DNA from: Haplodiscus bocki
Lineage: Eukaryota
Assembly: GCA_965655095.1 (NCBI GenBank)
Contig: OZ296650.1
Location: forward strand, 44,826,001 to 44,890,000
Direction of reading: 5' to 3'
Length of the DNA: 64,000 bases
Positions within the stretch are counted from its first letter, which is position 1. Every line of letters starts with the position of its first letter. A program made the position numbers and the translations under genes. The notes beneath the pieces were generated by a model, which was not told the origin of the DNA, did not search any database, and saw only the letters and a list, made by a program, of their open reading frames with translations. Shown here one piece after another: positions 28,538 through 52,980 of the stretch.

Positions 28538-31483
28538 CTGATACGAGGTTGGAAAAAAATCTGATCTCTCCGAAAAATGGTAGAAATTATTTGCACTTTT
28601 TCAAATATAAATCGTTTGCCTTAAATGAAGATCTAGAGGAAGTCCTCGTTAGATCTCAAGAGCGAAAATCAACTGAAAATTTTTCTTGATAATTTTGATG
28701 AACAAGCAGATAGCTCAATTACTTTATCCATAAAAGCTTCAAAGATATTTCCTCAAAATGGGGCCATGAGTTACAGTAAACCTAGTCGGCGTTCTGGTTC
28801 TAGTAAAAATGTCGATTATTAGTAATTTTTCTTTTATCATGACAACCAAACTCCCTTTGAAGCGATCAACTTCTTAAAGACTTGTTCAAAGTTGGAGCTT
28901 CTGATTATTGTGATCTACCATACCTTCCCAATTTCCAAAATTGGATATTCACCGCCATTTGCATCTACCATAAAACTTTTGTCACAAAGACAAAGCTGTT
29001 TTTCACAACACTTACGCCAGCATGAGTTCAAACGGAATTATTTGAATTTTTAGTTAACAAGAATACTGGTGATCAAACACGCTATGAGAATCAAATAAAA
29101 AAGTTAATGCTTACATATTCGCTGACAAATTAACTGCAGTTTTGTAATTCTGATTTGCTTAATAAATACAATAAAATTGTCCATTATTGATATCAATAAA
29201 GGGTAGTTTATTCGCTGCAGCAGCACCCTAAAAACTTCACCGTGAATCGTGCACCCTGGAAAATAGCCCACGTGAACAAATGTTTGCAACAAAGTTAGAG
29301 CGCATGTACAAAATCTCGGAAAAATGCAAGTTATGAACGCATTGGAAAAAATTGCAGACGCCTGTGATATAACACCTGCTTGAGCAAAAGTAACACAGAG
29401 GTAAAGCGGTGCTCCGCAAAGCTGGCAAAATGAAATCTTTCAAACTTTCGAAAGTTCGGAACAGCAATACCAATCGATACCGGAAAAAACTGTCTATAGG
29501 AACGTGAAATTTTCCAAAAAAACCAAGAGAATTTATAACCCAATTGAATACCGAAATTTTCCAACCTGCGTCTAAAAATGCTTTCTGGGGTTTTCCAAGA
29601 AGTGCGAAGTTCTTCCTTTACGCAACTGCAGAAAAATAGAAAACTACAAAGATGAGATTTTGCTTACGGATGAGGTTTTCAGTTCATCTTTGAAAAATAC
29701 ACCAAACCTAGGCACCCTACACAGCCAGGAGCCTTGCTCTAGGCCAACAAAAGTTGCTAAAAAAATGGAGTTCGAAAAAAAACATTTAGCGCAGTGACGT
29801 GTGATTTCTTAACCTATCTGATGCAATTGTAGCCACAAGGCTGATTTGGAAGGCAAATGAACGAAAAGTCTACAAAAAAATCGCTACTTTGGCAGCTTTC
29901 GGTTGAAACAGGAGTAATAAAAAAACCACTATAAATGAAAATTTCGAAACCTTGAGACATACAACACTTTGAATTAAAATTCACTAGATACGTAGTCACA
30001 AATTCAATTAGGTAGGCAAGAGTGAAAACCATTAAAGGGGCGATTTTTTCCCAAAAAACGCAAAACTGACCACAGTATAACAAAAAAAAACTGAGCATTT
30101 ATGCATAATTGCACAGCGTCTTCTGATGATGGTTTTTAATGCAGCTTAAAAGTTGACTTCGAAGGCAAACGAGCAAAATTATACCAAAAGTCGAAAAATT
30201 AGATTTTACTCCATTAATCCAACTCGTCGGAAAACAACGATAATAAACGATTTCTAATCTTTTCACTGCATTGAGCTACTCTCGCGCTTTTGCATGGTAT
30301 TACATAGACCTCGTAGCGAGTAAGTTGTTATGGAAGGCAAATAGATGAAAGATATGGGAAAAAGGGGGAATCACCTCCTTCTGGCCTACTTCAAAACTCT
30401 GAAAACGGAATTTTCGGATGAAAGTTTTCAGAAACTAGAAAAAGATTTACGTGTCGTATTGATTGTCGGAGAAGTAGTTCAAAAGGATGATTCTTCAGGC
30501 AAAAGTTACAAAAAACAGCAAAACTTGGGGCAAATTATTGCACACCCAAAACACGAAAAATTGCGACTGTTTTCCCATAAAATAGCAATACAATTGAAAA
30601 TTCTACATTCGCATTATTCTTGTCAAATTCAGTTCGACAAAATTGACTAGGTGGAAACAAACGTGGGCGAAAATGGCAAAAATCATGTATAATGGGAGAA
30701 TCGTCAGCTCCATGCTTTAAAAGAACAAAAGATTTTTTACCAATATCAAATGTCTCGGTAAAAATAGTGAATAAATTTCAAAAACTTTCAACTTGAAATG
30801 AATTTAGAAGACATCCTCAAAGCAAAAAATAAATCTCTTCCAATTCAGAAATTGGTTTTTTTTCCAAAAAAAAAAGATACTAAAAATGATAAAAATGGTG
30901 ATATGGAACGCAATTTTTTTCGCCGCGATGGGATCCGAACCCGGATGATCGTAGTAACAGACAAGAGAAGCTCATTGTTATTAATCACTAAGAGACGTGA
31001 CTAACTTCCCACAACTCATATTGTCCGAGTTGTGAACGGTACGACCGTAATAAGTTGCCGGTTTGCCAGCGTAAAAAGCGAATACTAACTATCAAGATAC
31101 CACCGGCTTAGCGTTTTGAATTTTTTTCTGAACACGTGAACACCAATATTTAGCAAGATAAAACCTCCCCGTAAAACCAGAAAAGATAATAGAAAAAATA
31201 ATTTGGAAAAAAAGCCAGCACCAAAAGTCGAGGGATGGATTGGATAAATATGGCAATCACGGTTTGATTATTATTCAAGCTTCAAATGCATTTGAATCCA
31301 AGAAAGTACTCAGTGTTCAATCGGCCTAATTTTTGGTGTTTATAATGAAGTGCCCAATGATTGCGGTAAATAATTGAAGCCTATCGTATAAATTACAAAT
31401 CAGACGTGGAAACAGGACAACTCCGAAAGGCCCTAGAACAGATATAAAAATGTATCAAGAAAAAATGTGCAGACAAGCCTCAC

Positions 31484-31941
31484 TGTTTTCTATGAAAATG
31501 AATTCCAGCATTTTTTCGCAAAATATCTTCCAACCCCGCGTTGATAACAGTTCTCAGGCTGCGAATCTGTCCAGGAGTTCTTCCGCTCTGGATTTTATCA
31601 AGAATCAAATTCACGTCTGATGAAATATCTATCTTGGCCAGCCCAAAATCGGTCAACTTCACATGACCTCGTTTATCAATGAGGCAATTATCAGGCTTGA
31701 TATCTCTGTGAACTATTTTGTGATCACTCAGAAATTTCAAGGCAAGGGCTATTTCGGCAGTGTAGAACGCGATCATATAGTCGCTGAAACATCCGCAAAT
31801 TTCCAGAAGGGATTTCAGGTCGCCTCCTACTAAGTATTCCATGACTAAATATACTTTATTCAAACTCTGCAGGCAGTAAAGTAGCTTCACAACGTGTGGG
31901 TTGTCTTCTAAAATTGCCAACGCATTCTTTTCCTCTTGCGC
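31484..31941 (-). CDS. gwl: Greatwall/MASTL Ser/Thr kinase, internal exon (kinase subdomains III-VII and start of the insert)
   Basis: AQEEKNALAILEDNPHVVKLLYCLQSLNKVYLVMEYLVGGDLKSLL...HRDIKPDN...KLTDFGL...RTPGQIRSL matches Greatwall, including the family RTPGQ motif after DFG. Acceptor tttcatttcag|GCG at 31942/31941 (phase 0). Probable donor CA|GTGAGG at 31484/31483 (phase 2). Confidence 0.9.
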
Positions 31942-33915
31942 CTGAAATGAAACTCTACTTGAGCCACTTCAATATTTTCCATCCCTGGTCAACACAAAAG
32001 TCCAAATTGAGTCGTTTTTGCGACGAGACTTTTATTAAATTCAAAACGTAGGGGCGTCTTTCCAAAATCGCAACAAAACAACATTGTCTGGCCGAAGAGT
32101 TGTTTAATATTGAGGCCGAAGTTTTTGACTACCGTCAGATACGTCTTCTACAATTAGAATATCTCCTATTGAGAAGTCAAGAGAAACAAATTAATATACC
32201 AGACAAAAAACAATGATGAGAATCCATCTAAAAAAATACTATTTGCTTCAGTGTTTGTTACTATGTTAGCTCTTGATGAAATATCTAGATACAGTAAAGG
32301 ACATGAAACAACTTGAAATAGAGAACTATTCAAAATAAAAGAAGTTAATCCAACAATTTCGGTAACTTATACATTAAAAGACAGAGGAGTTATCCGAGGA
32401 AAATATTATAAACCAGACAAGCTACTGAAACATAATTGTAATATTATAAACAAGACGGCCGGCTACCACCAGCAAATTTTCCGCCCTACCATTTTGTAAA
32501 GATGCCTTTTTTAAAAGATGAAAGCGTTATTTGATCAAAATTACTTTTTGGATAGGTATGTCTTTACTATGAATTTCATCAAAAATTTGAACGGTTACCA
32601 CTGATATCGAAAAAAGCGTCGAAATAGGTCACTTCGCAATTTTAAGAGCTGTACAACACTTCGGAAATTTCTAGTTTTCGGATTTTTTTGAATAAGCTGA
32701 AAAATTGATACTCCCTCTCAGCCTTCTAAGTTTCAACAGTACCTGCTTCGTGCGGATGTTCCTAGTCATTGAGACCACAAAAAAGAATCCGAAAAAATTA
32801 AGGAAATATGAAAGCTCTATTATAATTATCCGTTTTTTTTTAAATTTATTTTTTTTCTTTCTTCGAAAATTGTTATTCATACCTTCTAGGCCTCACTTGG
32901 ATTTTGACACGCTATAGCCAGGGCTGGTTGGAAAGCAGATCTGTTGCTCTCGTTACCAGTCCTCTCCGAGTCTCTCCACTAAATATCGAAGTTATATAAT
33001 TTTTGATAACATTCGGAGAAATTAATTTGTCTTATTTTCAAAATACTTTTTCTTCATCGTACTTTCGAATTTTTCCGACTTTGAAAGTTTTCTATTTTAG
33101 CCAAAAAACCTCATATTTAAGGTGGAAAAGAAATTTTTAGGAAGTACTAACATTTGATACGCATTCTGCAGAACAATTGCCACAATTAGCGATTTTGAAA
33201 AATTGAAAGTAGTTCCTCGAAAAAACCAATCTATTTTTTCAAAAAAAAATTCGTTCGTTTTGGGAAATCTTAATTTTTCTAGTCTCATTGTACAAATTTG
33301 CTACAACCTGGTGAATTTTCACAGTCAGAAAGTGTCCCAATATTGGACAATATCAATTGGCAGACATCAGGTTTAAAAAAAAACGTTCCAGTTGAGAGGA
33401 TGATTCTCCTTCCATAGTTTATAAATCGGGCGGAAAAGAACAAGACGAACTACTAAATTCAAATAATATAACCCTAGAGTATGAATATTTTACGTCAATT
33501 AAAAAAGTAATCAGCTGAATAATTTTTCAAAGAAACTTTAAATGACTTTCTTTTTGCCCAATAAAAAAAACGGAAAAGGGTTGAAATTGCCGTTATTGAG
33601 TATAATCGAAAATATCAATCAGAATATGAAAAGAAAAAGCATCTCATGGCTATAAAATTTCCAAAAAACTGTAAATGATGTAATCTTTATTTAGATCTGA
33701 TCAAAAAAGATGTGCATCAAAATTCTACCGTACAAAAACAGAGGTGATGAAAACTAGTGAAGACTGTAAGAAAAACATTGCTGATAAAACTAGACATCTC
33801 CTGAGCGAAACTCATAAGCTTCCCAGGAGCTAACCACGATGAACTTCGTGAGAATCAATAAAGCCATAACACCAATAACAAAGTCCTGGATTAAGAGCAA
33901 ACGATACATCGTTTT

Positions 33916-35625: not shown

Positions 35626-37828
35626 GGTGTCAGGATATTTCACCCCAGGACATTTAACCCCGGCACAATTCACCCCATGGACGTTTCACCCCACAGACAT
35701 TTCACCCCGATTTGAAAAGTAGCTTTAATTGACGCCTATATTAATATACATGGTGAACAATAAGATTCTATCGATAGCACCGTAAATAAAATCAGGTGTA
35801 AATGGCAATAATTATGTGCGAAGGCCCTAAAATTAAGTGTTAATTACAATATTCTCCTGCTAATTCAGTCAATTGAGTGAAAAATATAAGGTGCAGAACA
35901 AAGAACTACAAACAGTTATTTAATTAGACTTCCTAATTAGCATGATCAGATGCTTTCAAAATAGAGGTGAAACGTCCGTACTTACGAAGACAATACGCAG
36001 AAAATGCCGCGAAGCAAAAGATGAAGAAAAAGGAACAAAAATGCCGAGACGTTGAAGACCTTGAAAATAGAAACGAGAATATGAAAATGTATCAACTTGT
36101 CAGACAATTTGCATCAAAAGAAAAAACTAAACAAACAAAGCAATAGCCGATAAAAATGGATCCCTTTTATGCGAAAAAGACAAGATAAACAAACGATGGA
36201 AAGAATACATGGAAGAGCTATATGACAGTAAGCTTGAAAGACCAGAATACAAGACGACTGAAAACGATGAAATATCTCTCGTGCAAATGTGGCAAGGGGA
36301 ATCAGCAACAACCGATCCCCGGGAAGTGACGGCATCCTATAGAATTTCTGAAGTATGGTGGTAACAGAACACTGTCACCAGTCTGAAACAAATTCATCGA
36401 ATCTATCAGCAAGAAGAAATTCTGGAAGAGTGGTTCGAATCAATCTTTGTGGAAATCCCAAAAAAGTCAGGAACAAAAAAGTGTGAAGAGCACAGAACAA
36501 CTGCGCTTATACCTCACGCAATGAAGATATCATGCACAACAATGTACAATCTGATTAGCACCAAAATTAACAGGCAACTAGACCCGCTACAATTTGGTTT
36601 TAGACCAAAGGTTGGAACTGTGGAAAGTATTACAGCTCTAAAAACGATCCTGAATAACAGAATAAATCATGGGAAAAGTTCTTACCTTTGTTTTAATGAC
36701 TTTACAAAAACCTTTGACAGAGTTGAGCACAAAATGCTCATTGACGTCCTGAAGAAGAAATGAGTGAAACAAGCTGAAATTCGTCTGATTTGCGAAATAT
36801 ACAACAAAGAACGAGCATTCATGCGAAACGACAGTGAGCGAGAAAACAAAATGAAAATAAAACGAGGCGTCAGGCAAGGGTGTATCCTTTCACCCATTCT
36901 GTTTAATATCTACGCCGAAGACGCCTTTAGAAGCTGCAAGATTAAAAACAGGATCGAAATATATGAGAAAAAGAAAATATACAAAATCAGTTACGCAGAT
37001 GACACAGTTAAAATGGCCGAAAGCGAGAAGTAACTGAATGACACTCCGAATAAAATAAAAAATAACCTGCAGAAGTGGTCGATTGAAATAAATCCAAAGA
37101 AAACAAAATGCATGGTTGTGACAGACAATGAAACTCAAAAAATAGATATACAAATTGGTGATGACAAGTTAGAACAAGTCAGTAATTTTCAGTACTTGGG
37201 ATGATGGATAATTGAGACGATGAAACATGACGTAGATGTCCGGGCCAAAATTGCGAAATCCAAGCAAGCCTTCTGGAAACACAAAGAACTCATGCGAAAC
37301 AACATTAGATTCAAGACGAAACTGCGATTACTAAAAACTCAAGTATGGTCTATATTGAGATACGGATCGGAATGCTTTGCACTGACGAAATCGCTTCAAA
37401 AGAAAATTACAGCCTTTGAATTCTGGTGCTACAGACGAATATTAAAAGATCAGCTGGAACGACTATGTCTCAAATGAAGAAGTTCTTCTAAAAGTTAAAA
37501 TTGAAAAACCTGAACTCCTGCAATCAGTTATTAAAAGGAAAATCAGATACCTGGGACACATACTTAGACAATCTGCAGGAAAAGATCTGAACAAAATGAC
37601 GATGATTGTTAATGAAAAGAAAGGAAGAGGAAAAAGAAAAACAAATTGGACTTCGATTGTATTCGAGAAAATGAAAAAAAAGGATATGAGAACTGCAGAA
37701 CTAAAAGCAAATGACAAAGAGAAGTGGAAGAAAATGGAAGATGGAACCTAAGATCGCAACGGTCATGGTGAAAAGAAGAAGAAATGTTCGTGGGGTGAAA
37801 TGTTTGTGGGGTGAAATGTCCTGAAACC
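35626..37828. mobile_element. Non-autonomous TIR element (MITE/foldback-like) interrupted by an RTE LINE
   Basis: TIR GGTGTCAGGATATTTCACCCC vs reverse complement GGTTTCAGGACATTTCACCCC; internal GACATTTCACCCC subrepeats. Flanks AAATTTTA / AAAATTTA match 7/8. Confidence 0.7.
35980..37780 (+). mobile_element. 5'-truncated, decayed RTE-clade LINE
   Basis: RT fragments (IPKK...HAMKI, QFGFR, DFTKTFDRV, GVRQGCILSPILFNIY, YADD, LRYGSEC, FEFWCYRRIL) with stops and frameshifts. (GAA)n tail; degenerate TSD GAAACGTCCGT (35969-35979) / GAAATGTTCGT (37781-37791). Confidence 0.88.
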
Positions 37829-38283: not shown

Positions 38284-38551
38284 AAAACGGAATGAACGAA
38301 CGAAGAATATGATTATGAACGAAATAATATCCGGTTTATAAAACGGAATGAACGAATGATGAATATGAACGATGAATATGATTATGAACGAAATAAAATC
38401 CGGTCCATAAAACGGAATGAACGAACGATGAGTATGAACGATGAATATGATTATGAACGAAATATTATCCGGTTCATAAAATGGAATGAACGAACGATGA
38501 ATATGAACGATGAATATGATTATGAACGAAATAATATCCAGTTCATAAAAC
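38284..38551. repeat. ~69-bp minisatellite in the hAT, split by the MULE (continues 53127-53190)
   Basis: Unit AAAACGGAATGAACGAACGATGAATATGAACGATGAATATGATTATGAACGAAATAATATCCGGTTCAT, starting at about 38284, 38340, 38409 and 38478. Confidence 0.9.
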
Positions 38552-38727
38552 GGTAACGTCTCATAGCTCCGAAATTAGGAAACTAGGTGCATAACTCCGA
38601 ATAAAGTCAGCGTACCTAGAGTTTATTTAGTAGCATTTTCGCAGCAATTAAAAGACCTAATTGAGAGGCGGAAGTAAATACAAAATGAATGAATTGATTA
38701 AAATAAATAAAATCAAGTAGTCCCGAT

Positions 38728-40193
38728 ATGCGAAAAATATCGGAGGTAAATACAAAAATGAAGGGAAAATTGTCAGAAACAAAATTATTGTCTTTCAACA
38801 TGCCTTTACTAGAAGTAATTCAACCAAAAAGAGGAAAAATTGTATTTTTCGATAATTTTCGCTATACCATAAACAAGAAAACTCCTATTTCAATTTATTT
38901 GGAATGTTTCCGGAAATGTGGCGTGAGAATGATCGCAAACGATTCGCGAACAGAAAATACCAAATACCCTGGGCAACACAACCATGAGGAGGAAGTCGAA
39001 GAAGTAAAAAAAGAAAAAATGCGTCAAAAATTGATTTCAGCAGTAAAGAGAGACCCGACAAAAGTTTTGAAAGAAGTTTACGAAAATGTTCTTGAATCTA
39101 ACCCTGCCGATCCTTGTCCCGAATATTTTTCGGTGAAACCAACTTTATATCGCGAAAGAAGTAGAGAAGTGCCGCAGGTGCCAACTTCTGCTGGTACTCC
39201 TATGATAACTGGTAGGTGGGCACGAACTCTTACTGGCTCACGATTTTTGCTGAAAAACGACCAAAATTCGGGCATTGTTGTTTTCGCCACCGAACAATTT
39301 TCACAACTCATTACTGAAACCGCAATTATTATTACTGATGGGACTTTCAAGGCTTGCCCATATTCCTTTGAACAACTTTATTTTTGAACATGTTATTTTC
39401 GGAACTTTTGATGAAAGGAAAATTCCACTAATTTTTTCGTTCTTGGAAGGAAAGACTACTACTCATCATTATAGAAGACTTTTTCAGATTATCAAGCAAA
39501 AAATCGGCCAAAAGTTCAATATTCTCCACTGGGCTCCCGAAAAAATTATATCCGATTTTGAGACAGGATTGATTCCAGCGGTACAAACAGAATTTCCTAA
39601 TGCAATTCATTGGGGCTGTTATTTCCATTTCACGCAGGTTATTTTTCGCAGAATTCAAAATTCGGGCCTCCAAATCCCTTACCGAAGAGACGAACATTTG
39701 AAAAAAAATTTTCCGGAAAATTATGTCTGTGGGTTTCCTACCATTGGGGGAAATTCGAAATGCTATTGTGGATTTATTGGACGAAGAGCCCACCCGGACT
39801 CTTTTCTTCCGATACCCAGAATTACGAGATTTTTTCCAATAATTTCATAATACATGGTTTTTGACTTTTCCCCCAGAAATGTGGAACGTTTTCGAAAGAC
39901 CTTCCAGAATGCGAACAACAAATATTTGCGAAGGCTGGAATAGTTCCTGGAACCGTAGAACCCGTCGTGGGAGGCCCAATTTTTGGTTGGGAATCCGATT
40001 CTTGAAGGTGCAAGAAAGAGTAATTAAGAATACTGTAAATAGAATGCAAGCCGGAGAGATGTCACCCCGCCAACGCCGAAAATGGAGAACCCTAAACTCC
40101 CAAATTGAAGCCCTAAAAATTTCACTAACCAGCGGAAACCGTTCGCTGATGAATTATTGGAAAGCTGTTTCGTATGTTTGTAAATCTATGTAA
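38728..40193 (+). pseudogene. FLYWCH-MULE transposase, frameshifted
   Basis: FLYWCH-like FDNFRY...YLEC...C...HNH; TDGTFK, SDFETGL, CYFHF, TTNICEGWN. Split across at least three frames. Confidence 0.88.
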
Positions 40194-40232
40194 ATGGTTT
40201 TCCAATAATAATGCTCTTTCTTATTTTTGAAT

Positions 40233-40941
40233 TTTAACAACCGTAATTTTATTGGAAAATTGGCAGCAAGAGTTTAGAGTTCTCATTTCTTTCAATATTT
40301 CGGATGCGAGGACGGTTGTTTGTGTTAGGTACTCTTTGGGATTGTTCTAAGAGAAAAATCTAGTTTTTGCTTTAAGACTGAATTTAACTTTAATATTTTA
40401 ACACAGTTCACTTACATTAATGATGATCAGAAGAATAGCAAAGTGTCCAGAGTTTTTCTTTCTTTTTTTCTTCTTTTTCAAGCAGCTTCTTCTCGTTTCG
40501 CTTCTGTGTTCCAATGATCGCTGATTTTTCTTTTTGTTGCTTTTTTTCTTGTTTCGAATTCACGATTATTCAAGTTTTTAAACAGGATAACAATTAACAG
40601 CAGAATGTTGGAGGATTCATGTTTTTAAGATAATTTACAAGTTTAGATTAACATGAAAGTTTATAAATTGAGGCCTGGTTATAAGTTTAGATGCGTATGA
40701 AAATCAACAAGTTAGGACTGGAATATAAGGTAACATATGAAAATGATAGTTTATGATAAGATATTTTGCCACTTCAAGTGTGAGTTTACTTTGCTAATTG
40801 AATACAAACTGAAACATGATTGTTTTAAAAGAGGCCTGTTTATGGGGCTGGGGGACGAAAGATGAAAATATTAATCTCAAGTGGATGACAAGTATTTGCT
40901 TGCAAGAGTTGTTCGTACAGGTTCATACAGGGGCCGCTACA
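40233..40941 (-). repeat. 3' LTR (709 bp)
   Basis: Only one mismatch to the 5' LTR seen by eye (g40659 vs c52698). Preceded by the PPT; AATAAA at 40253-40248. Confidence 0.96.
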
Positions 40942-40954
40942 ACTACTCCCCTTC
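40942..40954 (-). promoter_or_regulatory. Polypurine tract
   Basis: GAAGGGGAGTAGT directly before the TG of the 3' LTR. Confidence 0.8.
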
Positions 40955-40994: not shown

Positions 40995-42075
40995 TCAGGA
41001 TGTGGAGAAGAGCATGAATAATTGTGGGAATTCACAGCGGCCTTGCTTGGTAAAATTGTCATCAGCGTCTCGAGGGGTGCAACGGTAGCAACGAAGAGAA
41101 GAATCCAGGAGGCGACGGAATCCGAGAAGACCACAGTGGTCATACACTTTGCGAAGGCCAGGATGTGTTAACACACGTTTGATGTTGGTAAGGAGGGGAA
41201 CAAGACGAGAGGCAGCTACGGCGTGGTCGGTAGTGGGTGAAGCTTTGTCAGGGTGTAGGCAGCGTAGGAGTGTGTTGGCATGACGGACAAGTGTAGACAT
41301 ATCGGCGGAAGGGTTGCAGCAAAGAAAATGATAGAATGTGTCGTCCGGTGTGGCAGGGTCGTTAAAATCAGTGGGAAGAGATAAGAGATGATGTTGAATC
41401 ATAGAAGCCAACGCTTTGGTGTGGGAGCCGTCTAAGGAGGTGAGTTGAGTGCGGAGGGAACTAATTTCGTCAAGATGTCGGAGGGAATCAGCCATCAGGC
41501 TATTGTGAGTACGGTTTAAGTCAGCCAAGGAAGAACGGAGTTGTTGAGATTCAGCTGTGAGCTGTTCAATTTGCTTGCGGGCGGAGGCAGCAGCCAAATC
41601 TGCTTCAGTGTACATATCGTAAAATACTTCAGCCTCACGCCGGGCATCTTGGAAAGCCTTGTCCAGTTGGGTGACAGAAGAGAAGTCGGTAGTAATGGTG
41701 ACCCAATCATTGAGAGCGGTCTCTGTATCCATGTTGGCTTGGGTGGATGTATCCATGACGTCGGGGAGAACGGGAGGAGGCAAGGGTTCTGGGCAGAAAC
41801 AGTTTGTTGTGGGGAGGTCAGCGGAGGCAAAAGTTTCAGAAGTAGTGGGTGGAGGCAACCAGATTTGGCGGATTGAACGCTTAAAAGGACGGTCTCTCGA
41901 ATTGATCTTTTGTAAACAAACGGAATCACTGTCTGGGGACAACTTGGTGATGCGATATTGGATGTCCTCTACCAGATACACATGATCACCGACAGCGACA
42001 GGGTGGATGCGTCCAGAACTTATTAGCACAGGGTGGCGGCGGGCAGGGTGGGTGCTGAAGAAGTTGAAGTTAGAC
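40995..42075 (-). CDS. Accessory ORF: SH3/KOW-like N-terminus, coiled coil, DnaJ J-domain (HPD) and CxxC; predicted 360 aa after splicing
   Basis: Open frame with no in-frame ATG at its 5' end, preceded by a branch/polypyrimidine/acceptor run ctaaac...ttcttgatgtttcag|G. The C-terminal TFYHFLCCNPSADMSTLVRHANTLLRCLHPDK...[15 protein letters not shown] (41342-41130) is in register with the DnaJ consensus. Confidence 0.82.
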
Positions 42076-42174
42076 CTGAAACATCAAGAAGTGAGACAAA
42101 TACAGTTTAGGTAAAAAGTGACAAAAGGGAGAAGAAAAAAAGAAAAAGTGGAGGGGGGAAAAAGGGGAAGGTGG

Positions 42175-42481: not shown

Positions 42482-44887
42482 TTAAGTAGTAGATTCGGAG
42501 TACAGAGGCACAGTAACAGTAGGATACACACTAGTGAGTGGGGGGTTAGGGTGAGAGTAGTTAGTAGGAGGGTGAGTGGGTAAGGCGGCAGCCGGAGGGT
42601 TGGGTGAGACTAAGGGTGGGGTCTGGTCACGAAGAGTTGCATGAGCGAGAGCCTGCAGGGCCTGAAACTCTTGCACTGAAAGGTACAAGAAAGAAGAGTC
42701 TGTGTCATGTGAAGTCGGAGGGGCGTCCACAATGTGCAAGAACTTGCCAGATGTACCACGGAAAAACCGTTGAGGGTGGGCAAAGAGACGTTTCCATTGG
42801 CGACGGAAGAGGGTAAAACTGATACTGAAGGTAAGGAGCGAGATAGTAATGGAGACGACCGAAAAACAGATAGCTGTACGGGTGGGGAGATAAGAGGATA
42901 AGGCTGCAGAGGTCGCCGGAGAGACAGAAGAATAATACTGAGCGATGGGTCGTGTTAGCTCAGCAAGGGATTCGCTGGACATGGTTTTAACATTAGGGGG
43001 TTCGGCTAATTCCAACCGAACGCTGCTAAGGACTGAGTGACGGGCTTCCGTCACAGAATATGTGTGGAAGGTACTGGTGGTGCGGGGAACATGCTGAAAG
43101 ATCTGATCCAGAGAAGGAGTAAGTTGTATTTTGGCCAAGAAGGGTTCGGGTTTAGTTTTGCAGAAATCGAGGTCAGGGCGAAGTTCCAAATCACCTTGAT
43201 TGAAAGAGAGGGTGCTACTGCAACTGGGGCGGATCAAGCAAGCTTTACAAGAGAGGGTAGAAATAGAAAAGTCAGAGCCACTGTCATTCTTCATCTGTAT
43301 GTGAGGGTCACGAGAGATAATATGATATAAACCATCGGCTAAATAAAAAGCTTGAGGAGCGTCAGGCAGAAGGACAGATTCTACTTTACAGTTACGAAGA
43401 GCGGGTATATCGTAATTATAGTATAAAGAAGGTAAACAAAGTAAGGTTTCGTCCGTAGTGGTCGAAAAACCTTGACGACAGAGTTTAATGCGGTTATTAC
43501 CAGAACATTGCTGAAGGCTGGCGGCATCGAGCTCAGCAAAACGGGAATTGTCAGTAGATATGGCTAGAAGAGGGTTGGGGAAGTGATACAAGGAAGCGGT
43601 ATCGCCATCATCGTTAGGCTGGTACAAGGGAATGGCGCGATAGACGTTGAAAGGTCTCTTGGAGTTCATCGGAACGCCGAGGACAACCGAAATACCTTTG
43701 GGGAGAAGGGAAACTTCTAAAACCATTTGGAGTTCATAGTAGATGGCTTCCTGGCCCACATGGATGGCAGGCGAGAGTTTGGTGCCACGAAGAATCTCGT
43801 CATGGGCAAGTTCGCTGACAATGGAAGCCAGTTGGGAAGGGAGGAGGAATTGAGGGCTGACATACCCAGCAGCCAGTGACGAAATCGTGGAATAGAGCGC
43901 AATCTGATAGGCGTAAAAAGCGGCTCTGTAGGATTTAACATGTGCGTACAGTGTTCCCAAATGATCAATATAATCCCGAATTTGTTGCAAAAAAGACATA
44001 CTGTGTATAAGTTGTTGATTACAAACCGGAAGGTTGGCTATCACGCCTTTGATTTCCATTAATTCTTTTTCCAGGGCTTTTAACTGTGTGCCCACGAGTT
44101 TTGTTATCTTGACCACACTGTCCTGTGTGTCTTTGATTTCGTTACCAAGCAAGAAAAATTTTTCATCATTTTTCGTTTGAACGCGTTGCAGAACATCTTG
44201 AAACTGATTTTGAGTAGCTAAAATTCCATCAATGTCGTTTTGTAAATCTGTAGTATCTGTGCAAAGGTTAAAAATAGAGAGCGCTGAACATGCAGCCTCT
44301 TTGACCGGGTCACCCAGAGCCAGTCCCGCGGCTCCCGCAGCCGCTGCGATGAGTCCAATTGCCCGTTTGCCTCTTGAAGGCGCGTCATGCGGGTGAATCG
44401 AAGGCGGTAAGAAGGAAGAAGCCATCGTCACCAAATTGTGTTGATCTGTCTGTGCAGCATGAATTTCATTTTCCAATACTTTCAATTTTTCTTCGAGTCG
44501 ATTAAACAAGTTGTCGTATAAGTGTTCCATGTCTGAGGTGTGACACAGCTTAACCGAGGACATGCCTGCGAGGGTATCGGAATGTCCACGTTGTTGGAGG
44601 ATAGTATACGCGTTGGTCAAGTTAATATCAGGGATCCTTGGGAACGGTGAGAACACACGAACCTTACTCTCACTTTCCGGTGTCACGGCTTGAAATTGAA
44701 AGACAAAAGCAGCACCTTTCTTGAAAACAGGGTCGTCCAATGAATCGCTCAAATGTGTTGTGAACTGGACGTCAGCACAGACGTTGAGAAAGGAGGATAA
44801 AAATGGGAGAAAAAAGAAAGGGGTGGGTGACGTCATATAGCTGGGGTGTCTCCTAAATAAAGAGAAGATCATACAATCATTCGGCAT
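42482..44887 (-). CDS. env: Env, class I fusion glycoprotein (F-type)
   Basis: Signal-like FFFLPFLSSFLNVCA, furin site RGKR (44374-44363) and fusion peptide AIGLIAAAAGAAGLALG. Then heptad repeats, a Cys-rich region, TM AICFSVVSITISLLTFSISFTLF and a long Pro-rich tail. Splice acceptor tcttctctttatttag|G at 44853/44852 predicts a 790-aa product. Confidence 0.92.
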   Translation of the reverse strand: MPNDCMIFSLFRRHPSYMTSPTPFFFLPFLSSFLNVCADVQFTTHLSDSLDDPVFKKGAAFVFQFQAVTPESESKVRVFSPFPRIPDINLTNAYTILQQRGHSDTLAGMSSVKLCHTSDMEHLYDNLFNRLEEKLKVLENEIHAAQTDQHNLVTMASSFLPPSIHPHDAPSRGKRAIGLIAAAAGAAGLALGDPVKEAACSALSIFNLCTDTTDLQNDIDGILATQNQFQDVLQRVQTKNDEKFFLLGNEIKDTQDSVVKITKLVGTQLKALEKELMEIKGVIANLPVCNQQLIHSMSFLQQIRDYIDHLGTLYAHVKSYRAAFYAYQIALYSTISSLAAGYVSPQFLLPSQLASIVSELAHDEILRGTKLSPAIHVGQEAIYYELQMVLEVSLLPKGISVVLGVPMNSKRPFNVYRAIPLYQPNDDGDTASLYHFPNPLLAISTDNSRFAELDAASLQQCSGNNRIKLCRQGFSTTTDETLLCLPSLYYNYDIPALRNCKVESVLLPDAPQAFYLADGLYHIISRDPHIQMKNDSGSDFSISTLSCKACLIRPSCSSTLSFNQGDLELRPDLDFCKTKPEPFLAKIQLTPSLDQIFQHVPRTTSTFHTYSVTEARHSVLSSVRLELAEPPNVKTMSSESLAELTRPIAQYYSSVSPATSAALSSYLPTRTAICFSVVSITISLLTFSISFTLFRRQWKRLFAHPQRFFRGTSGKFLHIVDAPPTSHDTDSSFLYLSVQEFQALQALAHATLRDQTPPLVSPNPPAAALPTHPPTNYSHPNPPLTSVYPTVTVPLYSESTT

Positions 44888-44911
44888 TGGTTCATTGGCT
44901 GTGACAGAGTG

Positions 44912-47900
44912 TTAGTGCTGGTTAGACAGAGCAGAAGGCATTGTGTTTGTCAGCCTCCGTGGAGAAAGGAAGTCCGTCAGATCGCGGGGTAAGCGAGAGC
45001 GGAAAAGAGGTTGTGCTTTTCGTTGAGTAACTGTGTTAGGTCGGAGGGTACGTTTGTTGGGGGGACTGCGGCTGTGTAGCTCGCGAGCAGCGCGGCGGAC
45101 AATATTCTCCACCGGGGAGAAAGGGGAGCTCGTAGGCGGGGAGTTGGTAAACGGAATGGTCCTGGGTTGATTGGAAGATGGCGTAATACGGGAAGGAGTT
45201 GAGGGTTGGGATGGCAAGGAGCAGGAGCGAGGCGTTAAATCGTAGGGAAGTGTGGAGGCAGTTATACTCGGTGAAATAGGTGGCGAGATATGAGAATCAA
45301 CGGGGACATTGCTGGCTGGGGTGTTGTCGGTAGGGGTCGGAAGCGGGTGGCTGAACCACGGCGAGGGAGCAAAGAGAGTAGGAGGAGGTAAAAACGAGAC
45401 AACGCAGTCATCGTGGTTGACGGTCTTCGAGGAGGTCTGCGAGTTCATCGGCTGAGCAGGTCCAGGAGGTGAAGGTCGGGTCGGTATTGTCGTGGAGGGA
45501 GGCGGAATGCCATGGTATCGTTTGAGGCGATCATAATGAACAATTTGCTGTTTGCCAGTAGAGAGCTCTTCAATTTTGTAGTTAACGTCATTGATGCACT
45601 TCAGAATGCGGTAGGGACCGCGCCAGGGGCTGGATAGTTTTGGACTTTGGCCAGGTACAGTAACGTCGTAGTGGAGAAGAACAAAATCATCCTCTCTGTA
45701 TGTGGGGCCGTGGACTTTCCTGTTGTAGAGAGCGTTGCGACGGCGTTGTTGAGCTGTAGTATTTCGCCGAACGAGTTCGAAAGCTCGGTGAAATTTCTGT
45801 TGTTGTGTCATCACATATTCATTGATGTTAGTTGGGATGTGGCTTTCGGGAGGCGGATACATCAAGTCAAGAGGAAGCAAAACCTCATGTCCAAGGACCA
45901 GACGGTTCGGAGTGAAACCGGTTGATTCGTGGACGGAGGACCGATATGCCATCAGGACGAAGGGAAGGAAATAAGACCAGTTAGATTGTTGTTTGTCGAT
46001 ACTTTTGGTGAGCATATTCAATAATGTGCGGTTCATGCGCTCAATGACTGAGTTTGACTGTGGGTGGAAAGAAGTGGTCCGTGTCTTATTGATTTCGAGC
46101 AAAGTCATCAGGCGCTGAAACAAGGCTGATTCGAAATTACGGCCTTGGTCCGTGTGAATGCTGTTAGGGCATCCAAAACGGCAAATCCAGTGTTCAAGTA
46201 GCGCATCGGCAGTAGTGGAAGCTTGCTGGTCTGGCAGAGGTATCGCCTCGTACCATTTGGTGAAATGGTCGCCAATCACAAGAATAAAGCGGTTGCCATT
46301 AGAAAGGGGAAGTGGGCCAAGAAAGTCGAGACCAATGTGATGGAAGGGGTAGCTGATCTTCCAGTCAACTAAGGAATGGCGGTGGGTCTTTGGGGGTCCA
46401 GACTTCTTTTGACAAACATCACAACATTGGATGAATTGCTTGACATCTTCTTTAAATCTGGGCCAGTAAAAACGTTGACGCACTTTTTCAATGACTTTGT
46501 GCGTTCCCAAATGACCAGCGGTTTTAGAACTGTGTAAAGCCGTCAAAATTTCTGGTACCATGGATCGCGGAATAATCTTTTGTAGGAAGGGCAAATTACC
46601 GTCAAGTGGTTCAAACTTTCGACAAAGCACGTTGTTTTTGATGTGGAGACTAGTTAATTGGTTGAACATTTGCCATCCTAAACGAGGGAGTCCTTGCAGT
46701 TCATCATTCCGAGGTACACGACTTTGTCGAATCCATTTCCGAACCTGGTGTAAGCTTTCGTCAGCTTCCTGTGCTTGTACCAAGGCGTTGTCATTGAAAT
46801 CGGAGTTACAGTCGTTCTCCTTAGGGTCTACTGGAGTTTTCAGAAAAACAGTAATGTGAACAGGGGAGGTACGAAAAACTTCCTGAATCAGTTGGCGTAC
46901 TTGCTCCCATTCGAGCTTGTCGAGGCCAGAGCCGATACATGGCAAACTAATTTTGTAAACGTGATGCTGTTCGGCGTGCGATCGCATTCTTTCCAAGGAA
47001 GCGCGCAAAGTTCCGTAAGTTGGTTTTTGAGAGAACTTCTGTTTTGTAACTAAATGGTAGATGTATCGTTTGGATTCAGGCAACCATTGGGGCCAAAGGG
47101 GGTTCGTGATGTGATTCCATCCAGTTGGGTAAGTACAAGGGTAGTTACGGCGAATCTTTCTCGCTATACCGGCCGACATTTTGAAGTCAGCGGACACACA
47201 GTGGCCAAAGGAATCGTGGGTATCGAAAAGGTTTCCGACGGTTTCACGGTAAATTCCGATTGCTTCATCTTGCTGTTGAGTTGTTGCATTCGTCATGGGG
47301 GAATCGATGTGATGTTGGTCAGAATAGTAACTATCGTCGTTCACTTGCGCCTGATAGGTGGGCGAGTCATTGGGTCCCAGGTGTTCTTCAAACGGGAATG
47401 AAGGGTTGTTTGTTTCTGCTACTGTATTTACGGAAGATGGAATTCGTGAGAGTCCATCGGCATGTCCAATAGACTTTCCAGGACGATGTCGAACATCGTA
47501 ATCAAAAGGTGCCAACTTTTCCAACCAGCGAGCAGTTATTCCATCAGGGTCTTTGAAATTATGCAACCATTGAAGTGCTCGGTGATCCGTTACAATGGTG
47601 AACTTACGTCCCAGTAAGTAGTGTCTGAAGTGACGGGTGAAAGTTACAATGGCCAAGAGTTCACGGCGAGTTGCTGAGTACTTGCTTTGGGTCTTAGAAA
47701 GAGCCTTGGATGCGTAACAGACTGCTCGTTCCAAACCATTTTGTTCCTGAGCCAAAACAGCGCCCATGGCGAATTGGCTGGCGTCCGTATATAACACAAA
47801 TGGCTTTTGAAGTGACGGGTATGCTAAAATTGGAGTGGTCGTCAAACGATGTTTCAACGAGTCAAAGGAATTTTGTGCTGCGTCGTTCCATTGAAACTCA

Positions 47901-49771
47901 GAAGACGTTTCACTTGCTTTGTGTAAGGGTCGAGCGATTTCAGCAAAATCCTTGACGTAACGGCGATAGTAGGAGGCTAAGCCTAAAAAGGACTTCACTT
48001 GCGTCTGGCTGGTGGGGGTTGGAAATTTAAGTACTGCATTGACTTTCTCGGGGTCCACTTGAAGTCCATCTTTACTGACAATGTGCCCAAGGAACTGTAC
48101 CTTCGTTTGAAAGAAAGCGCATTTCGAAGGATTGATTTTCAAGTTGGCCTGTTGGAAACGTTGAAATACTTGGCGTAAACGTGAAAGGTGTTCCTCCGGG
48201 GTCGTGGAGAAGATGATGCAGTCGTCGAGATAGGGTACACACGTTTTCCACGTAAGGCCAGTAAGGACATGTTCCATTAAGCTTTGGAAAGTGTTTGGGC
48301 TTCCAGTTAGTCCCATCGGCATTCGCAGCCACTTGAATGATCCAAAGGGTGTGCTAAAGGCAGTGTAGTCTTGGCTGTCCCTGTCCATTGGTACTTGATA
48401 AAATCCAGCAGACATATCAATTGTAGAGAAATAACAGCTTCCGCCCAGTGTGTCGAAGATTTCTTCAATAGACGGGATCGGCCAACTAGATTTGATAGTC
48501 TGCTTGTTGAGTTGGCGGTAATCAATAACAAGACGCAACTTTCCATTTTTCTTTGGCACTAGCATAGCAGGAGAACTGTACGGACTATGACAAGGTGCGA
48601 TCAAGTCTTTCTCCAAAAAGACATCAAGTTTGGACTGCAAATCCTCCTTATAGTGCAATGGCATTCGGCGATTAGGAATTTTGATCGGTTTGGAGCCAGG
48701 GTAGACATCAATCTTGTGATTGGTAGCGTCACACTTACCCAAGTCCCATTCTGAGGACGAAAAAACGTGCCTGAATTCTTTGACGAGTGCGGCAAAGTGT
48801 TGATGGTATTGTTGGTGAATGGTTGGATCAACTGAGGTGATCACTGTTTGCAAGTCATATTTCGAGGAGTCTGTCCGATTTTGTAAAGATCCTGCCGCCG
48901 GAGATTCGCTGGGGGCCGGCAATGGGCGACTAACATTATTGATAATGTCATCAGATACAAATTCGGATGACCCAAGAGTTGTGTTTTTGTAGATCGTGAT
49001 CTCGGAGTCCGTTGTGTTAGTCATTATGACAGGGATCATCTCGTCAGAAAAATCAAAAAGTATGTTGAGAGCTGAGATATTTTCACTCATAGTGAATTTC
49101 TCCAAAGGTTCAAAAACGGCATTGAGGTGGAAAGGTGGTCTCTTCCAATTTGGAATGTGTGCTGGAAGAATTGTTGCATGGCCTGCTGGTACGTTAATGG
49201 TTTCGGTCGCAACGACTCGAAAGATAGCATTGTGGTCAATTTCAAAATTTTTGTGGTAGAGGGGGACAGAATGGGTTGAGTCCAATTTTAACTCCATTCG
49301 TGAAAACAAGGGGTCGCATTTATGGCGTTCTAAGAAGTCCAAACCTAAAAGGCAGTCAGCTTCTGATTTCTCCAAAACTCGAAACTCGTGATGGAATAAT
49401 TTGTTTCCCACATATACTGGTACTCTGATGAGGCCTTTCACATCAATCGGCAGTCCATTTGCCGCTCTCAGGTTTTTGTTGCAGGTGTCCAAGGTTATTT
49501 GATAAGTTTTCTTCAATTCGTTGTAAATCTCAGAGCTTAGACAAGACACACTTGCTCCACAATCGCATACTGCTTCCACATCTTTGTCTAAAATTTTCAA
49601 TCGAACAAAGACACTGCGCGAATCAACCATCGAATTTAAACCAAATGTTCGTTGTGGGCCCTTTTTATTGTTCAAGTCTGCGCGAGGACCCTTTTGCGTA
49701 GACTGTTTTAGTTTTCCTGGTTGGATCGTTGCATAGGACAGTCTCGTCGGAAATGTCCAACGCGAAGGCAA
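44912..49771 (-). CDS. pol: Pol polyprotein: protease, dUTPase-like spacer, RT, RNase H, macrodomain, integrase (GPY/F), Pro/Ser-rich tail
   Basis: Motifs: VCDCGAS (PR); LRLVIDYRQLN, MPMGL, YLDD (RT); YTDAS, ELLA, TDH, ADGLSR (RH); H-x6-H...CDVC, LDFLGP, TDQG, ERMN (IN); WRGPY. Probably translated only through the frameshift near 49711. Confidence 0.97.
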   Translation of the reverse strand: MPSRWTFPTRLSYATIQPGKLKQSTQKGPRADLNNKKGPQRTFGLNSMVDSRSVFVRLKILDKDVEAVCDCGASVSCLSSEIYNELKKTYQITLDTCNKNLRAANGLPIDVKGLIRVPVYVGNKLFHHEFRVLEKSEADCLLGLDFLERHKCDPLFSRMELKLDSTHSVPLYHKNFEIDHNAIFRVVATETINVPAGHATILPAHIPNWKRPPFHLNAVFEPLEKFTMSENISALNILFDFSDEMIPVIMTNTTDSEITIYKNTTLGSSEFVSDDIINNVSRPLPAPSESPAAGSLQNRTDSSKYDLQTVITSVDPTIHQQYHQHFAALVKEFRHVFSSSEWDLGKCDATNHKIDVYPGSKPIKIPNRRMPLHYKEDLQSKLDVFLEKDLIAPCHSPYSSPAMLVPKKNGKLRLVIDYRQLNKQTIKSSWPIPSIEEIFDTLGGSCYFSTIDMSAGFYQVPMDRDSQDYTAFSTPFGSFKWLRMPMGLTGSPNTFQSLMEHVLTGLTWKTCVPYLDDCIIFSTTPEEHLSRLRQVFQRFQQANLKINPSKCAFFQTKVQFLGHIVSKDGLQVDPEKVNAVLKFPTPTSQTQVKSFLGLASYYRRYVKDFAEIARPLHKASETSSEFQWNDAAQNSFDSLKHRLTTTPILAYPSLQKPFVLYTDASQFAMGAVLAQEQNGLERAVCYASKALSKTQSKYSATRRELLAIVTFTRHFRHYLLGRKFTIVTDHRALQWLHNFKDPDGITARWLEKLAPFDYDVRHRPGKSIGHADGLSRIPSSVNTVAETNNPSFPFEEHLGPNDSPTYQAQVNDDSYYSDQHHIDSPMTNATTQQQDEAIGIYRETVGNLFDTHDSFGHCVSADFKMSAGIARKIRRNYPCTYPTGWNHITNPLWPQWLPESKRYIYHLVTKQKFSQKPTYGTLRASLERMRSHAEQHHVYKISLPCIGSGLDKLEWEQVRQLIQEVFRTSPVHITVFLKTPVDPKENDCNSDFNDNALVQAQEADESLHQVRKWIRQSRVPRNDELQGLPRLGWQMFNQLTSLHIKNNVLCRKFEPLDGNLPFLQKIIPRSMVPEILTALHSSKTAGHLGTHKVIEKVRQRFYWPRFKEDVKQFIQCCDVCQKKSGPPKTHRHSLVDWKISYPFHHIGLDFLGPLPLSNGNRFILVIGDHFTKWYEAIPLPDQQASTTADALLEHWICRFGCPNSIHTDQGRNFESALFQRLMTLLEINKTRTTSFHPQSNSVIERMNRTLLNMLTKSIDKQQSNWSYFLPFVLMAYRSSVHESTGFTPNRLVLGHEVLLPLDLMYPPPESHIPTNINEYVMTQQQKFHRAFELVRRNTTAQQRRRNALYNRKVHGPTYREDDFVLLHYDVTVPGQSPKLSSPWRGPYRILKCINDVNYKIEELSTGKQQIVHYDRLKRYHGIPPPSTTIPTRPSPPGPAQPMNSQTSSKTVNHDDCVVSFLPPPTLFAPSPWFSHPLPTPTDNTPASNVPVDSHISPPISPSITASTLPYDLTPRSCSLPSQPSTPSRITPSSNQPRTIPFTNSPPTSSPFSPVENIVRRAARELHSRSPPNKRTLRPNTVTQRKAQPLFRSRLPRDLTDFLSPRRLTNTMPSALSNQH
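46841..47254 (-). other. TARG1/OARD1 (DarG-like) macrodomain inside Pol
   Basis: GNLF...FGHCVSADFKMSAGIA...RYIYHLVTKQKFSQKPTYGTLRASLERMRSH...ISLPCIGSGLDKLEWEQVRQLIQEVF...ITVF aligns closely with human OARD1 (GDLF...LAHCISEDCRMGAGIA...[31 protein letters not shown]...[26 protein letters not shown]...ITVY). Confidence 0.92.
49656..49717 (-). promoter_or_regulatory. -1 ribosomal frameshift signal (G GAA AAC plus H-type pseudoknot)
   Basis: GGAAAAC sits directly before the gag stop, and pol is in the -1 frame (CAG GAA AAC TAA vs CCA GGA AAA CTA). After a 6-nt spacer come stem 1 AGUCUACGC/GCGCAGACU and stem 2 GGGUCCU/AGGGCCC. Confidence 0.8.
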
Positions 49772-51123
49772 TTAAAACAGGCTTGACACTCATGAGAAGC
49801 ATGGTTTCTTCGTTTACAATGTCGACATTCTTGATTTTGGGGTTGGTATCTGGGAGATGTCTTGTTGCTGTTGCTATTCATAGGCTGGTGATTTCCGGCA
49901 TTCTTGCTGTGTGTATTGTAACGCATTGATTGATTGTGTCTATAAGGTGATTCACTGTTGTTTGTGCGTCCACGGTCCTCTTCGAATCGAACCGATCGGG
50001 ATTTGAACCCATTTTGTCTGTCATACGAGGTACTCCGGTCATTACGGTGGGTTGCCCTGTTTTCTGATCTGTCTCCTGAATTACTTCTGTTGTCATATCT
50101 GTTGGATCTCCGTTCGTCGTTTCTTGGTTCGAAATTTTGTCGATAATGTTTCTGTTCATTGGATCCGCTTCTATTCCGATTTGGGTCACTAGTGCGATAC
50201 TGATTCCGACCTCTTTCGGGCGAGTTTTGTCTTCTGTGGATCGACGACTTCAATTCATTAATTTCTTTTCTAAGGCTTTTGACGAGTTCATTCATAGGGT
50301 CTGTTTGCAAAGCGTTGGCTGCGATTGAATTAATACTGCTCGGGAACAAGGAGCTAGCCGAAGCATTGTTCTGACGCTCCAGAGCAAGGAAAGAGTCTAG
50401 TTCAATGGCCATTGTCAGGGCTTCATCGGCTGTTGATGGTTTCGTTTTTCTCAGTTCCCATCGGAGAGTGGAACTTTGCAATCCCTCGATGAAACTGGTG
50501 AGGACGATTTGGTCTATCAGATGCGGATGGGCACGGTATGCTCGGCGTGCCAATGTTCGAATATCACAGAGGAAAGTTGCAATATCTTGACTTGGTTGCT
50601 GCTTCGCAGCTTTTAATCGTGCTTTCAAAATGTCCACATTGGTTGTGTAATTTTGTCTGAACGCGTCGACAAGGAGGTCAAAATCATTCTGTTGTTCGGG
50701 TGACAATGTGGTGTAAAAATGAAGTGCATTGTCCCTCAATCGAAGTGCAAAGTACTGGGGACGATTGTCGTGTCGGGAAGAGTGCCATCCCGAGAGCATC
50801 GCGGCCGTGTTGAACTGTTGGAGATAATCTTCAAAGTCTCCTGATCCAGTAAATGAGTCAGGCATCAGGCATGACGGCAGGGTACTAGTGGGGTTGAAAT
50901 AAAAACCACCAGGTCCCATCTGGGCAGTTGGAGCTGCTCCATGGCCCAAGAGTGTCGAAAAATGAGGTCCGGCCGAAGCGGATCCACCTGCTTCGTGTCG
51001 CGCAGCAAATCCCGGGGTTGAGTGAGGGTCATTTGAGTTTGTAACTCTGGATCTTCTTGGCGCGTCTGCATCTCTTTCTTCGAATTCGTTGACATTGATG
51101 TTACTTTCTCCCACTTCAGTCAT
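49708..51123 (-). CDS. gag: Gag (471 aa)
   Basis: Retrotransposon capsid-like region (FTGSGDFEDYLQQF...FIEGL), an Arg/Ser/Asn-rich region, and two CCHC knuckles (CRHCKRRNHASHEC, CFNCLRVGHFRRDC). Confidence 0.95.
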   Translation of the reverse strand: MTEVGESNINVNEFEERDADAPRRSRVTNSNDPHSTPGFAARHEAGGSASAGPHFSTLLGHGAAPTAQMGPGGFYFNPTSTLPSCLMPDSFTGSGDFEDYLQQFNTAAMLSGWHSSRHDNRPQYFALRLRDNALHFYTTLSPEQQNDFDLLVDAFRQNYTTNVDILKARLKAAKQQPSQDIATFLCDIRTLARRAYRAHPHLIDQIVLTSFIEGLQSSTLRWELRKTKPSTADEALTMAIELDSFLALERQNNASASSLFPSSINSIAANALQTDPMNELVKSLRKEINELKSSIHRRQNSPERGRNQYRTSDPNRNRSGSNEQKHYRQNFEPRNDERRSNRYDNRSNSGDRSENRATHRNDRSTSYDRQNGFKSRSVRFEEDRGRTNNSESPYRHNQSMRYNTHSKNAGNHQPMNSNSNKTSPRYQPQNQECRHCKRRNHASHECQACFNCLRVGHFRRDCPMQRSNQEN

Positions 51124-51197
51124 TGTGATTAGTAGTCAGCGTTATCTTTATTTTTGGTAAAAAGGTGCGAATTTGAGGGACTGGTGCAAATTGCAGT

Positions 51198-52251: not shown

Positions 52252-52270
52252 AATCCCACTCCTGTCACCA
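52252..52270 (-). promoter_or_regulatory. Primer-binding site, probably tRNA-Leu
   Basis: TGGTGACAGGAGTGGGATT lies 1 nt after the 5' LTR. It is complementary to a tRNA 3' end AAUCCCACUCCUGUCACCA, 18/19 identical to the animal tRNA-Leu(CAG) 3' end (…AATCCCACTCCTGACACCA). Confidence 0.85.
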
Positions 52271-52271
52271 A

Positions 52272-52980
52272 TTTAACAACCGTAATTTTATTGGAAAATT
52301 GGCAGCAAGAGTTTAGAGTTCTCATTTCTTTCAATATTTCGGATGCGAGGACGGTTGTTTGTGTTAGGTACTCTTTGGGATTGTTCTAAGAGAAAAATCT
52401 AGTTTTTGCTTTAAGACTGAATTTAACTTTAATATTTTAACACAGTTCACTTACATTAATGATGATCAGAAGAATAGCAAAGTGTCCAGAGTTTTTCTTT
52501 CTTTTTTTCTTCTTTTTCAAGCAGCTTCTTCTCGTTTCGCTTCTGTGTTCCAATGATCGCTGATTTTTCTTTTTGTTGCTTTTTTTCTTGTTTCGAATTC
52601 ACGATTATTCAAGTTTTTAAACAGGATAACAATTAACAGCAGAATGTTGGAGGATTCATGTTTTTAAGATAATTTACAAGTTTAGATTAACATGAAACTT
52701 TATAAATTGAGGCCTGGTTATAAGTTTAGATGCGTATGAAAATCAACAAGTTAGGACTGGAATATAAGGTAACATATGAAAATGATAGTTTATGATAAGA
52801 TATTTTGCCACTTCAAGTGTGAGTTTACTTTGCTAATTGAATACAAACTGAAACATGATTGTTTTAAAAGAGGCCTGTTTATGGGGCTGGGGGACGAAAG
52901 ATGAAAATATTAATCTCAAGTGGATGACAAGTATTTGCTTGCAAGAGTTGTTCGTACAGGTTCATACAGGGGCCGCTACA
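52272..52980 (-). repeat. 5' LTR (709 bp)
   Basis: Direct repeat of 40233-40941. Reads TGTAGCGGCC...GTTGTTAAA on the minus strand. Candidate TATAAA 52704-52699, AATAAA 52292-52287; followed by the PBS. Confidence 0.96.
52449..52457 (-). promoter_or_regulatory. Putative major splice donor AAT|GTAAGT inside the 5' LTR
   Basis: Perfect GTAAGT donor at 52454, preceded by AT. Joining it to the G that follows the acceptors at 44852 or 42075 creates an in-frame ATG for env and for the J-domain ORF. Confidence 0.7.

Follow-up and report, generated by a model that had tools for sequence, protein, structure and literature searches.

Retroviruses and retrotransposons borrow Hsp70 and Hsp40 chaperones from their hosts. 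Class C J-domain proteins are also encoded by viruses, and those described in PMC3486835 include the polyomavirus T antigens, the Molluscum contagiosum J-domain protein and Rki of phage RB43. No retroelement-encoded J-protein was found in the literature searched, a scope with subscription journals and repeat databases outside it. The main text of a survey of metazoan errantiviruses (PMC13524379) makes no mention of DnaJ, J-domain, macro, accessory or chaperone, and its table may list the clade described here. Likewise, DnaJ occurs nowhere in the main text of a paper on extra open reading frames (ORFs) of bdelloid elements (PMC5408684), and the main text of a survey of 280,000 J-protein sequences (PMC10410713) contains no instance of transpos, retro or integrase. 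A J-domain accessory gene is apparently new for retroelements, while DNA viruses and phage were already known to encode J-domains.

Here we describe such a gene, ORF4, from Haplodiscus bocki. The window analysed is a 64,000-nucleotide stretch of contig OZ296650.1 (assembly GCA_965655095.1, positions 44,826,001 to 44,890,000). ORF4 is the fourth gene, 3′ of env, of a young env-bearing Ty3/gypsy long terminal repeat (LTR) element. Judged by profile matches and predicted structure, it encodes a real but divergent HPD-containing J-domain protein of the class C type. A sequence-only reading had proposed a retroelement-encoded J-domain protein at this place, and both halves of that proposal hold: the gene sits after env inside a complete LTR element, and its product is a J-domain homologue with a matching fold, profile matches in relatives and an HPD motif conserved in 17 of 17 aligned sequences.

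The J-domain of ORF4

ORF4 occupies positions 40995..42083 on the minus strand, as do all parts of the element given below, and runs for 362 codons from stop to stop, with its first methionine at residue 111. Its product is predicted to begin with an SH3-like β-barrel (residues 17-77; 41853..42035) that resembles Tudor and Spt5 KOW domains. This is followed by a proline-rich, poorly ordered linker (41724..41852), with low values of the predicted local distance difference test (pLDDT) and a conserved Cys/Pro patch in which P103 is invariant and C95 nearly so. A long helix or coiled coil comes next (residues 121-235; 41379..41723), drawing many weak coiled-coil matches in Pfam, and the predicted helix spans residues 135-216 with pLDDT mostly above 90. 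The J-domain, delimited by Pfam profile and predicted fold, comprises residues 249-318 (41130..41339), and its HPD motif lies at residues 277-279 (41247..41255), as the sequence-only reading had placed it. A conserved CG...CxxC motif (41079..41135), whose residues C317, G318, C332 and C335 are invariant in 17 of 17 sequences, possibly binds a metal. The barrel, Pro-rich linker, coiled coil and trailing CxxC of the initial description are thus all present. The protein has no signal peptide and no membrane segment.

When compared with the Pfam DnaJ profile (PF00226), this copy scores only 17.2 bits (E=0.0056) against a curated cut-off of 27.8, and none of 37 close relatives reaches the cut-off (best, 24.8 bits). 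This shortfall counts against the assignment, and because of it we file this copy as a divergent J-domain homologue. A single HPD is also weak evidence, given five HPD strings in the six frames of the window. All five orthologues tested from distant subfamilies score above the cut-off at 33.1-54.5 bits, although they were found by a DnaJ search and so form a sample biased to high scores, and the same gene occupies the same element position in five distant subfamilies of the same genome. The predicted structure shows a four-helix J fold that matches known J-domains and places HPD in the loop that joins helix II to helix III. Because the fold matches, relatives exceed the cut-off and HPD is invariant across subfamilies, the likeness goes beyond chance. 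Fold, profile match and HPD conservation had been named beforehand as possible refutations, and all three favoured the J-domain. The register claimed with DnaJ needs one amendment: Y3, L6, A12, L24 and HPD are identical to the DnaJ string quoted at the time, whereas L17 pairs with an isoleucine and is similar only.

Among cellular J-domains the best sequence match is DNAJC5, with which ORF4 shares the four-helix fold, HPD and a similar segment after helix IV. Database searches found no cellular protein with the full ORF4 architecture. In a tree of J-domains, those of the element fall on one side of a branch with support of 87/90 and long branches, and with only this support and these branch lengths the tree does not name the donor. 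The nearest host row is a J-domain locus (L114, G000:C10:62676344-62679526) whose helix II has an eight-residue stretch in common with the F5 element subfamily, weakly supporting this locus as a possible donor lineage.

Selection and inheritance across the clade

A search of the animal's own 1.5-Gb genome assembly yielded at least 113 matches to ORF4. We examined 80 loci, excluding 19 for stops or truncations and keeping the 61 whose full-length frame is intact. The intact copies sort into four subfamilies (F1-F4) that are 52-67% identical, and HPD is present in 59 of them with synonymous variation at all three codons. Within subfamilies, the pooled ratio of nonsynonymous to synonymous differences per site (pN/pS), computed over non-independent pairs, is 0.11-0.17 for the whole gene and 0.06-0.16 within the J region. 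In comparisons between subfamilies, pS reaches saturation near 0.8, whereas about half of the residues in the J-domain and barrel are identical. An alignment of 17 sequences at 24-54% identity leaves only P103, H277, P278, D279, C317, G318, C332 and C335 as invariant columns. Taken together, these codon and residue patterns indicate that ORF4 is under purifying selection.

A word search of databases gave 94-107 relatives and a full profile search gave 210; those with a stated source all come from ENA, and some have no close copy in the genome examined here. In a set of 262 database proteins that includes decayed copies, 126 cover the region, and HPD is found in 70 of the 81 that carry the three cysteines and in 28 of the 45 that do not.

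To avoid selection bias for ORF4, 20 loci were chosen by env alone. ORF4 follows env in 19, and the last is a broken copy. HPD lies within the match in 15 of the 19; of the other four, two are truncated, one is ridden with stops and one is a full-length match that lacks the motif. This sampling also revealed two further subfamilies. A split between F5, F6 and F8 and the rest recurs in trees of reverse transcriptase (RT)/RNase H, env and ORF4 built from 11 copies. F1-F4 group together in all three, and the branches of ORF4 between subfamilies are about 3-4 times as long as those of RT and env. By these comparisons ORF4 occurs throughout the clade and has been inherited together with pol and env. 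Because the trees agree and 19 of 20 env loci carry the gene, the data fit a single capture in the ancestor of the clade followed by retention.

Several copies depart from this pattern or add to it. One recombinant (L031, G000:C4:75111500-75121400) has an env 92% identical to that of the window, a pol 64% identical and an ORF4 55% identical; the env tree places this copy with F1, the other trees with F2. Another locus (L153, G000:C10:69549500-69559400) is a tandem array of ~2.7-kb units, each an N-terminally broken F8-type ORF4 that keeps the J-domain. In F2-F4 a fifth ORF of ~205 codons lies between ORF4 and the 3′ LTR (for example L086:4897-5511 on the minus strand, and L084, L088, L090, L091, L093 and L095). 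It is 59-66% identical between subfamilies and absent from the element in the window, and by eye it resembles a GDSL/SGNH hydrolase with a basic tail; searches of Pfam, PDB and Atlas gave no match. A Six3/6-like homeobox exon, also read by eye, adjoins one element copy.

Predicted expression, likely Hsp70 engagement and proposed function

In this copy a stop lies just upstream of ORF4, and no methionine precedes residue 111. Splicing is predicted to create the start codon, using an LTR donor that also serves env. The putative donor, AT|GTAAGT (52449..52456), is the only GTRAG site in the 5′ LTR, and the putative ORF4 acceptor is a T-rich tract with YAG|G (42075..42100). The exon starts at 42075, so that the ORF end given in the sequence-only reading is the first base 3′ of the acceptor-like site. 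The AT of the donor, once joined to the G of the acceptor, would complete a start codon, and the env acceptor would be the alternative. In Drosophila gypsy, the env start codon is reported to form in this manner (PMC2585583). The predicted env acceptor (exon start 44852) has the same phase as that of ORF4, and this agreement holds in F1, F3, F4 and F7. Of 15 intact F1 copies, 14 carry AT|GTAAG in the 3′ LTR, and all eight F2-F4 elements have it in their LTR; the LTR donor is AT|GTGAG in F5 and F6, the F7 donor lies in the leader, and none was found for F8. The ORF4 acceptor is present in 57 of the 61 intact F1-F4 copies, TTCAG|G occurs in F6-F9 as well, and homology between subfamilies starts at the acceptor, with a T-rich tract of varying length in F2. 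Two observations speak against a splice-made start: 24 of the 61 copies carry an ATG in frame shortly before this point, and the one F5 copy examined supplies an ATG of its own 3′ of the acceptor.

Since the divergent J-domain keeps HPD family-wide, ORF4 likely recruits host Hsp70. Because the protein lacks a membrane segment, its partner would be a cytosolic or nuclear Hsp70, such as the EEVD-ended Hsc70 that the host genome encodes. The charge of helix II weighs against such recruitment. As the sequence-only reading had noted, helix II is less basic than in canonical J-proteins: the 12 residues before HPD include two K/R in this copy and one in F2-F4, versus four or more K/R in helix II of 18 of 19 host J-domains. 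Low charge (K/R 1-2) characterizes the branch of F1-F4, F7 and F9, whereas the sister branch of F5, F6 and F8 retains three to four K/R and a near-canonical helix. In the Hsc20-Ssq1 pair basic residues of helix II drive binding, but J-domain/Hsp70 interfaces differ from one pair to another, and auxilin and polyomavirus T antigen make their main contact through helix III (10.1101/2020.01.13.901538). In the low-charge branch, helix III ends in basic residues. We consider HPD-dependent use of Hsp70 by ORF4 quite likely across the clade and, with somewhat less assurance, probable for this copy.

Our favoured reading, held tentatively and at a little under even chances, is that the ORF4 J-protein, likely made from a spliced mRNA, brings host cytosolic Hsp70 to an RNA-protein complex or particle of the element itself. 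The barrel would bind element RNA or Gag, the coiled coil would oligomerise the protein, the J-domain would trigger ATP hydrolysis by Hsc70 on the barrel-bound client and the Cys motif would bind a metal. An element complex is favoured as the client because no clean loss of the gene is seen, conservation within subfamilies is strong and the predicted donor is that of env.

The KOW/Tudor barrel fold is compatible with either an element or a host client, and the main rival is that ORF4 is active as a J-protein but targets a host complex, in the manner of polyomavirus T antigen. The barrel might dock on the PIWI/Argonaute loading machinery, on chromatin or on an elongation complex, which Hsc70 would dismantle or from which it would be diverted. 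Counter-defence genes often diverge fast, as ORF4 does relative to RT and env, chaperones reportedly act in piRNA biogenesis (10.1101/423210), and the barrel's likeness to Tudor and Spt5 KOW domains would suit such a target. However, strong purifying selection within subfamilies, the lack of any sign of loss in the clade and the predicted co-expression with env by splicing all suit a core role in the life cycle. Moreover, Tudor methyl-readers use an aromatic cage for methylated residues, and the two to three aromatics conserved in the barrel across the 17-sequence alignment (Y44, F67 and mostly W76) may be too few to build one. We judge a host target unlikely.

Less likely again is that the J-domain of F1-F4, F7 and F9 is a weak binder, decoy or scaffold that stimulates Hsp70 poorly, with a working one kept in F5, F6 and F8. 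Such a loss would account for the difference in helix II charge between the branches and for the long J branch leading to F1-F4, F7 and F9. Yet HPD is invariant throughout that branch despite its position in a loop, and helix III, the main contact in auxilin and T antigen, has a basic end in this branch.

A donor within the LTR obliges an element to export RNA that is unspliced, and in Caenorhabditis elegans Cer1 does so through CERV, the product of a spliced mRNA (PMC10309623). ORF4, with a coiled coil and a barrel that is basic in F1-F4, might by analogy act as a Rev/CERV-like regulator in the export or protection of the element's unspliced RNA, its oligomers being recycled through Hsp70. 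No homology to CERV was seen, and none was searched for; no localisation signal is conserved across subfamilies in an alignment read by eye. This role, which overlaps with service to the element's own complex or particle, seems improbable. Finally, that the J likeness is chance or a functionless captured host fragment, as the sub-threshold Pfam score of this copy might suggest, is contradicted by profile, fold, selection and clade-wide retention, and with pN/pS near 0.1 and HPD invariant over saturated synonymous divergence it is already refuted for practical purposes.

The element and its relation to known systems

The complete element reads 5′ LTR, primer site, gag, pol, env-like ORF, ORF4, polypurine tract, 3′ LTR, and is bounded by a 4-bp target-site duplication, ATTC (52981-52984 and 40229-40232). 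Its 709-bp LTRs (5′, 52272..52980; 3′, 40233..40941) are identical at 708 of 709 bases, which indicates a young insertion. The primer-binding site (52253..52270) is complementary to tRNA-Leu(CAG); two of the three host loci scanned for matches to the complementary pattern are tRNA-Leu(CAG). A tandem array with 424-bp spacing, from ~161.07 Mb on G000:C1, accounts for most of the 566 genome matches to the primer tRNA 3′ end. The gag gene (49708..51135) matches Retrotrans_gag and zf-CCHC above the Pfam cut-off, and pol (44912..49771) encodes protease, RT, RNase H, a Macro domain and integrase with Pfam matches in gypsy order. LTRs, primer site, polypurine tract (40942..40954, read directly), gag, and pol ordered protease, RT, RNase H, integrase place the element in Ty3/gypsy (Metaviridae). 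The env-like ORF (42482..44911, 809 codons) has weak matches to Baculo_F and to torovirus spike (each E=0.002), both below the Pfam cut-off. The Macro domain (46889-47071), between RNase H and integrase, scores 23.3 bits against a cut-off of 22 and is, after the J-domain, a second host-type domain captured by this element.

The element is housed by a Mutator-like DNA transposon (38284-40193 and 53048-53197), recognized by FLYWCH and MULE ORF pieces on one side and by matching 69-bp repeats and imperfect inverted repeats on both. Elsewhere in the window are a host Ser/Thr protein kinase exon (31480-31968, minus), decayed non-LTR RT pieces (36365-37751, plus, read by eye; 57968-58717, minus, a sub-cut-off RVT_1 match) and a coiled-coil ORF (60376-60951, minus).

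That an LTR clade has kept a J-domain while synonymous sites diverged to saturation points to some step of the life cycle with a strict need for Hsp70 directed to a target, for which the domain offers a small, assayable handle. In addition, helix II ranges naturally from basic to nearly neutral while HPD stays the same, a direct test of how far J function rests on helix II charge. The boldest combination of these ideas, in our view doubtful, is that this would be the first reverse-transcribing element with its own working Hsp70 co-chaperone: a J-domain captured once by an old clade of env-bearing gypsy elements, wired to the env donor, its barrel aiming Hsc70 at small-RNA silencing or at its own capsid, and one branch engaging Hsp70 in a new, helix-III-based way.

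Like the virus-encoded J-proteins (PMC3486835), ORF4 is a mobile-element J-domain with HPD fused to unrelated domains, presumably hijacking Hsp70. Unlike those proteins of DNA viruses, it resides in a reverse-transcribing LTR element, has an under-charged helix II in its branch, and carries its J-domain C-terminally, behind the barrel and coiled coil and before the Cys motif. The element resembles errantiviruses in its LTR-gag-pol-env order and tRNA-Leu primer site and may do so in its env, which has a weak F-type match (PMC13524379); it resembles gypsy env in its predicted start codon from donor AT and acceptor G (PMC2585583). What sets it apart from errantiviruses is a fourth gene behind env, joined by a fifth in F2-F4, together with the Macro domain encoded by pol and an LTR donor predicted to serve two acceptors. 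The GDSL/DEDDy ORF3 of bdelloid elements (PMC5408684) and CERV of Cer1 (PMC10309623) are, like ORF4, captured or novel accessory genes that are located 3′ or expressed from a spliced mRNA, but neither is a chaperone cofactor.
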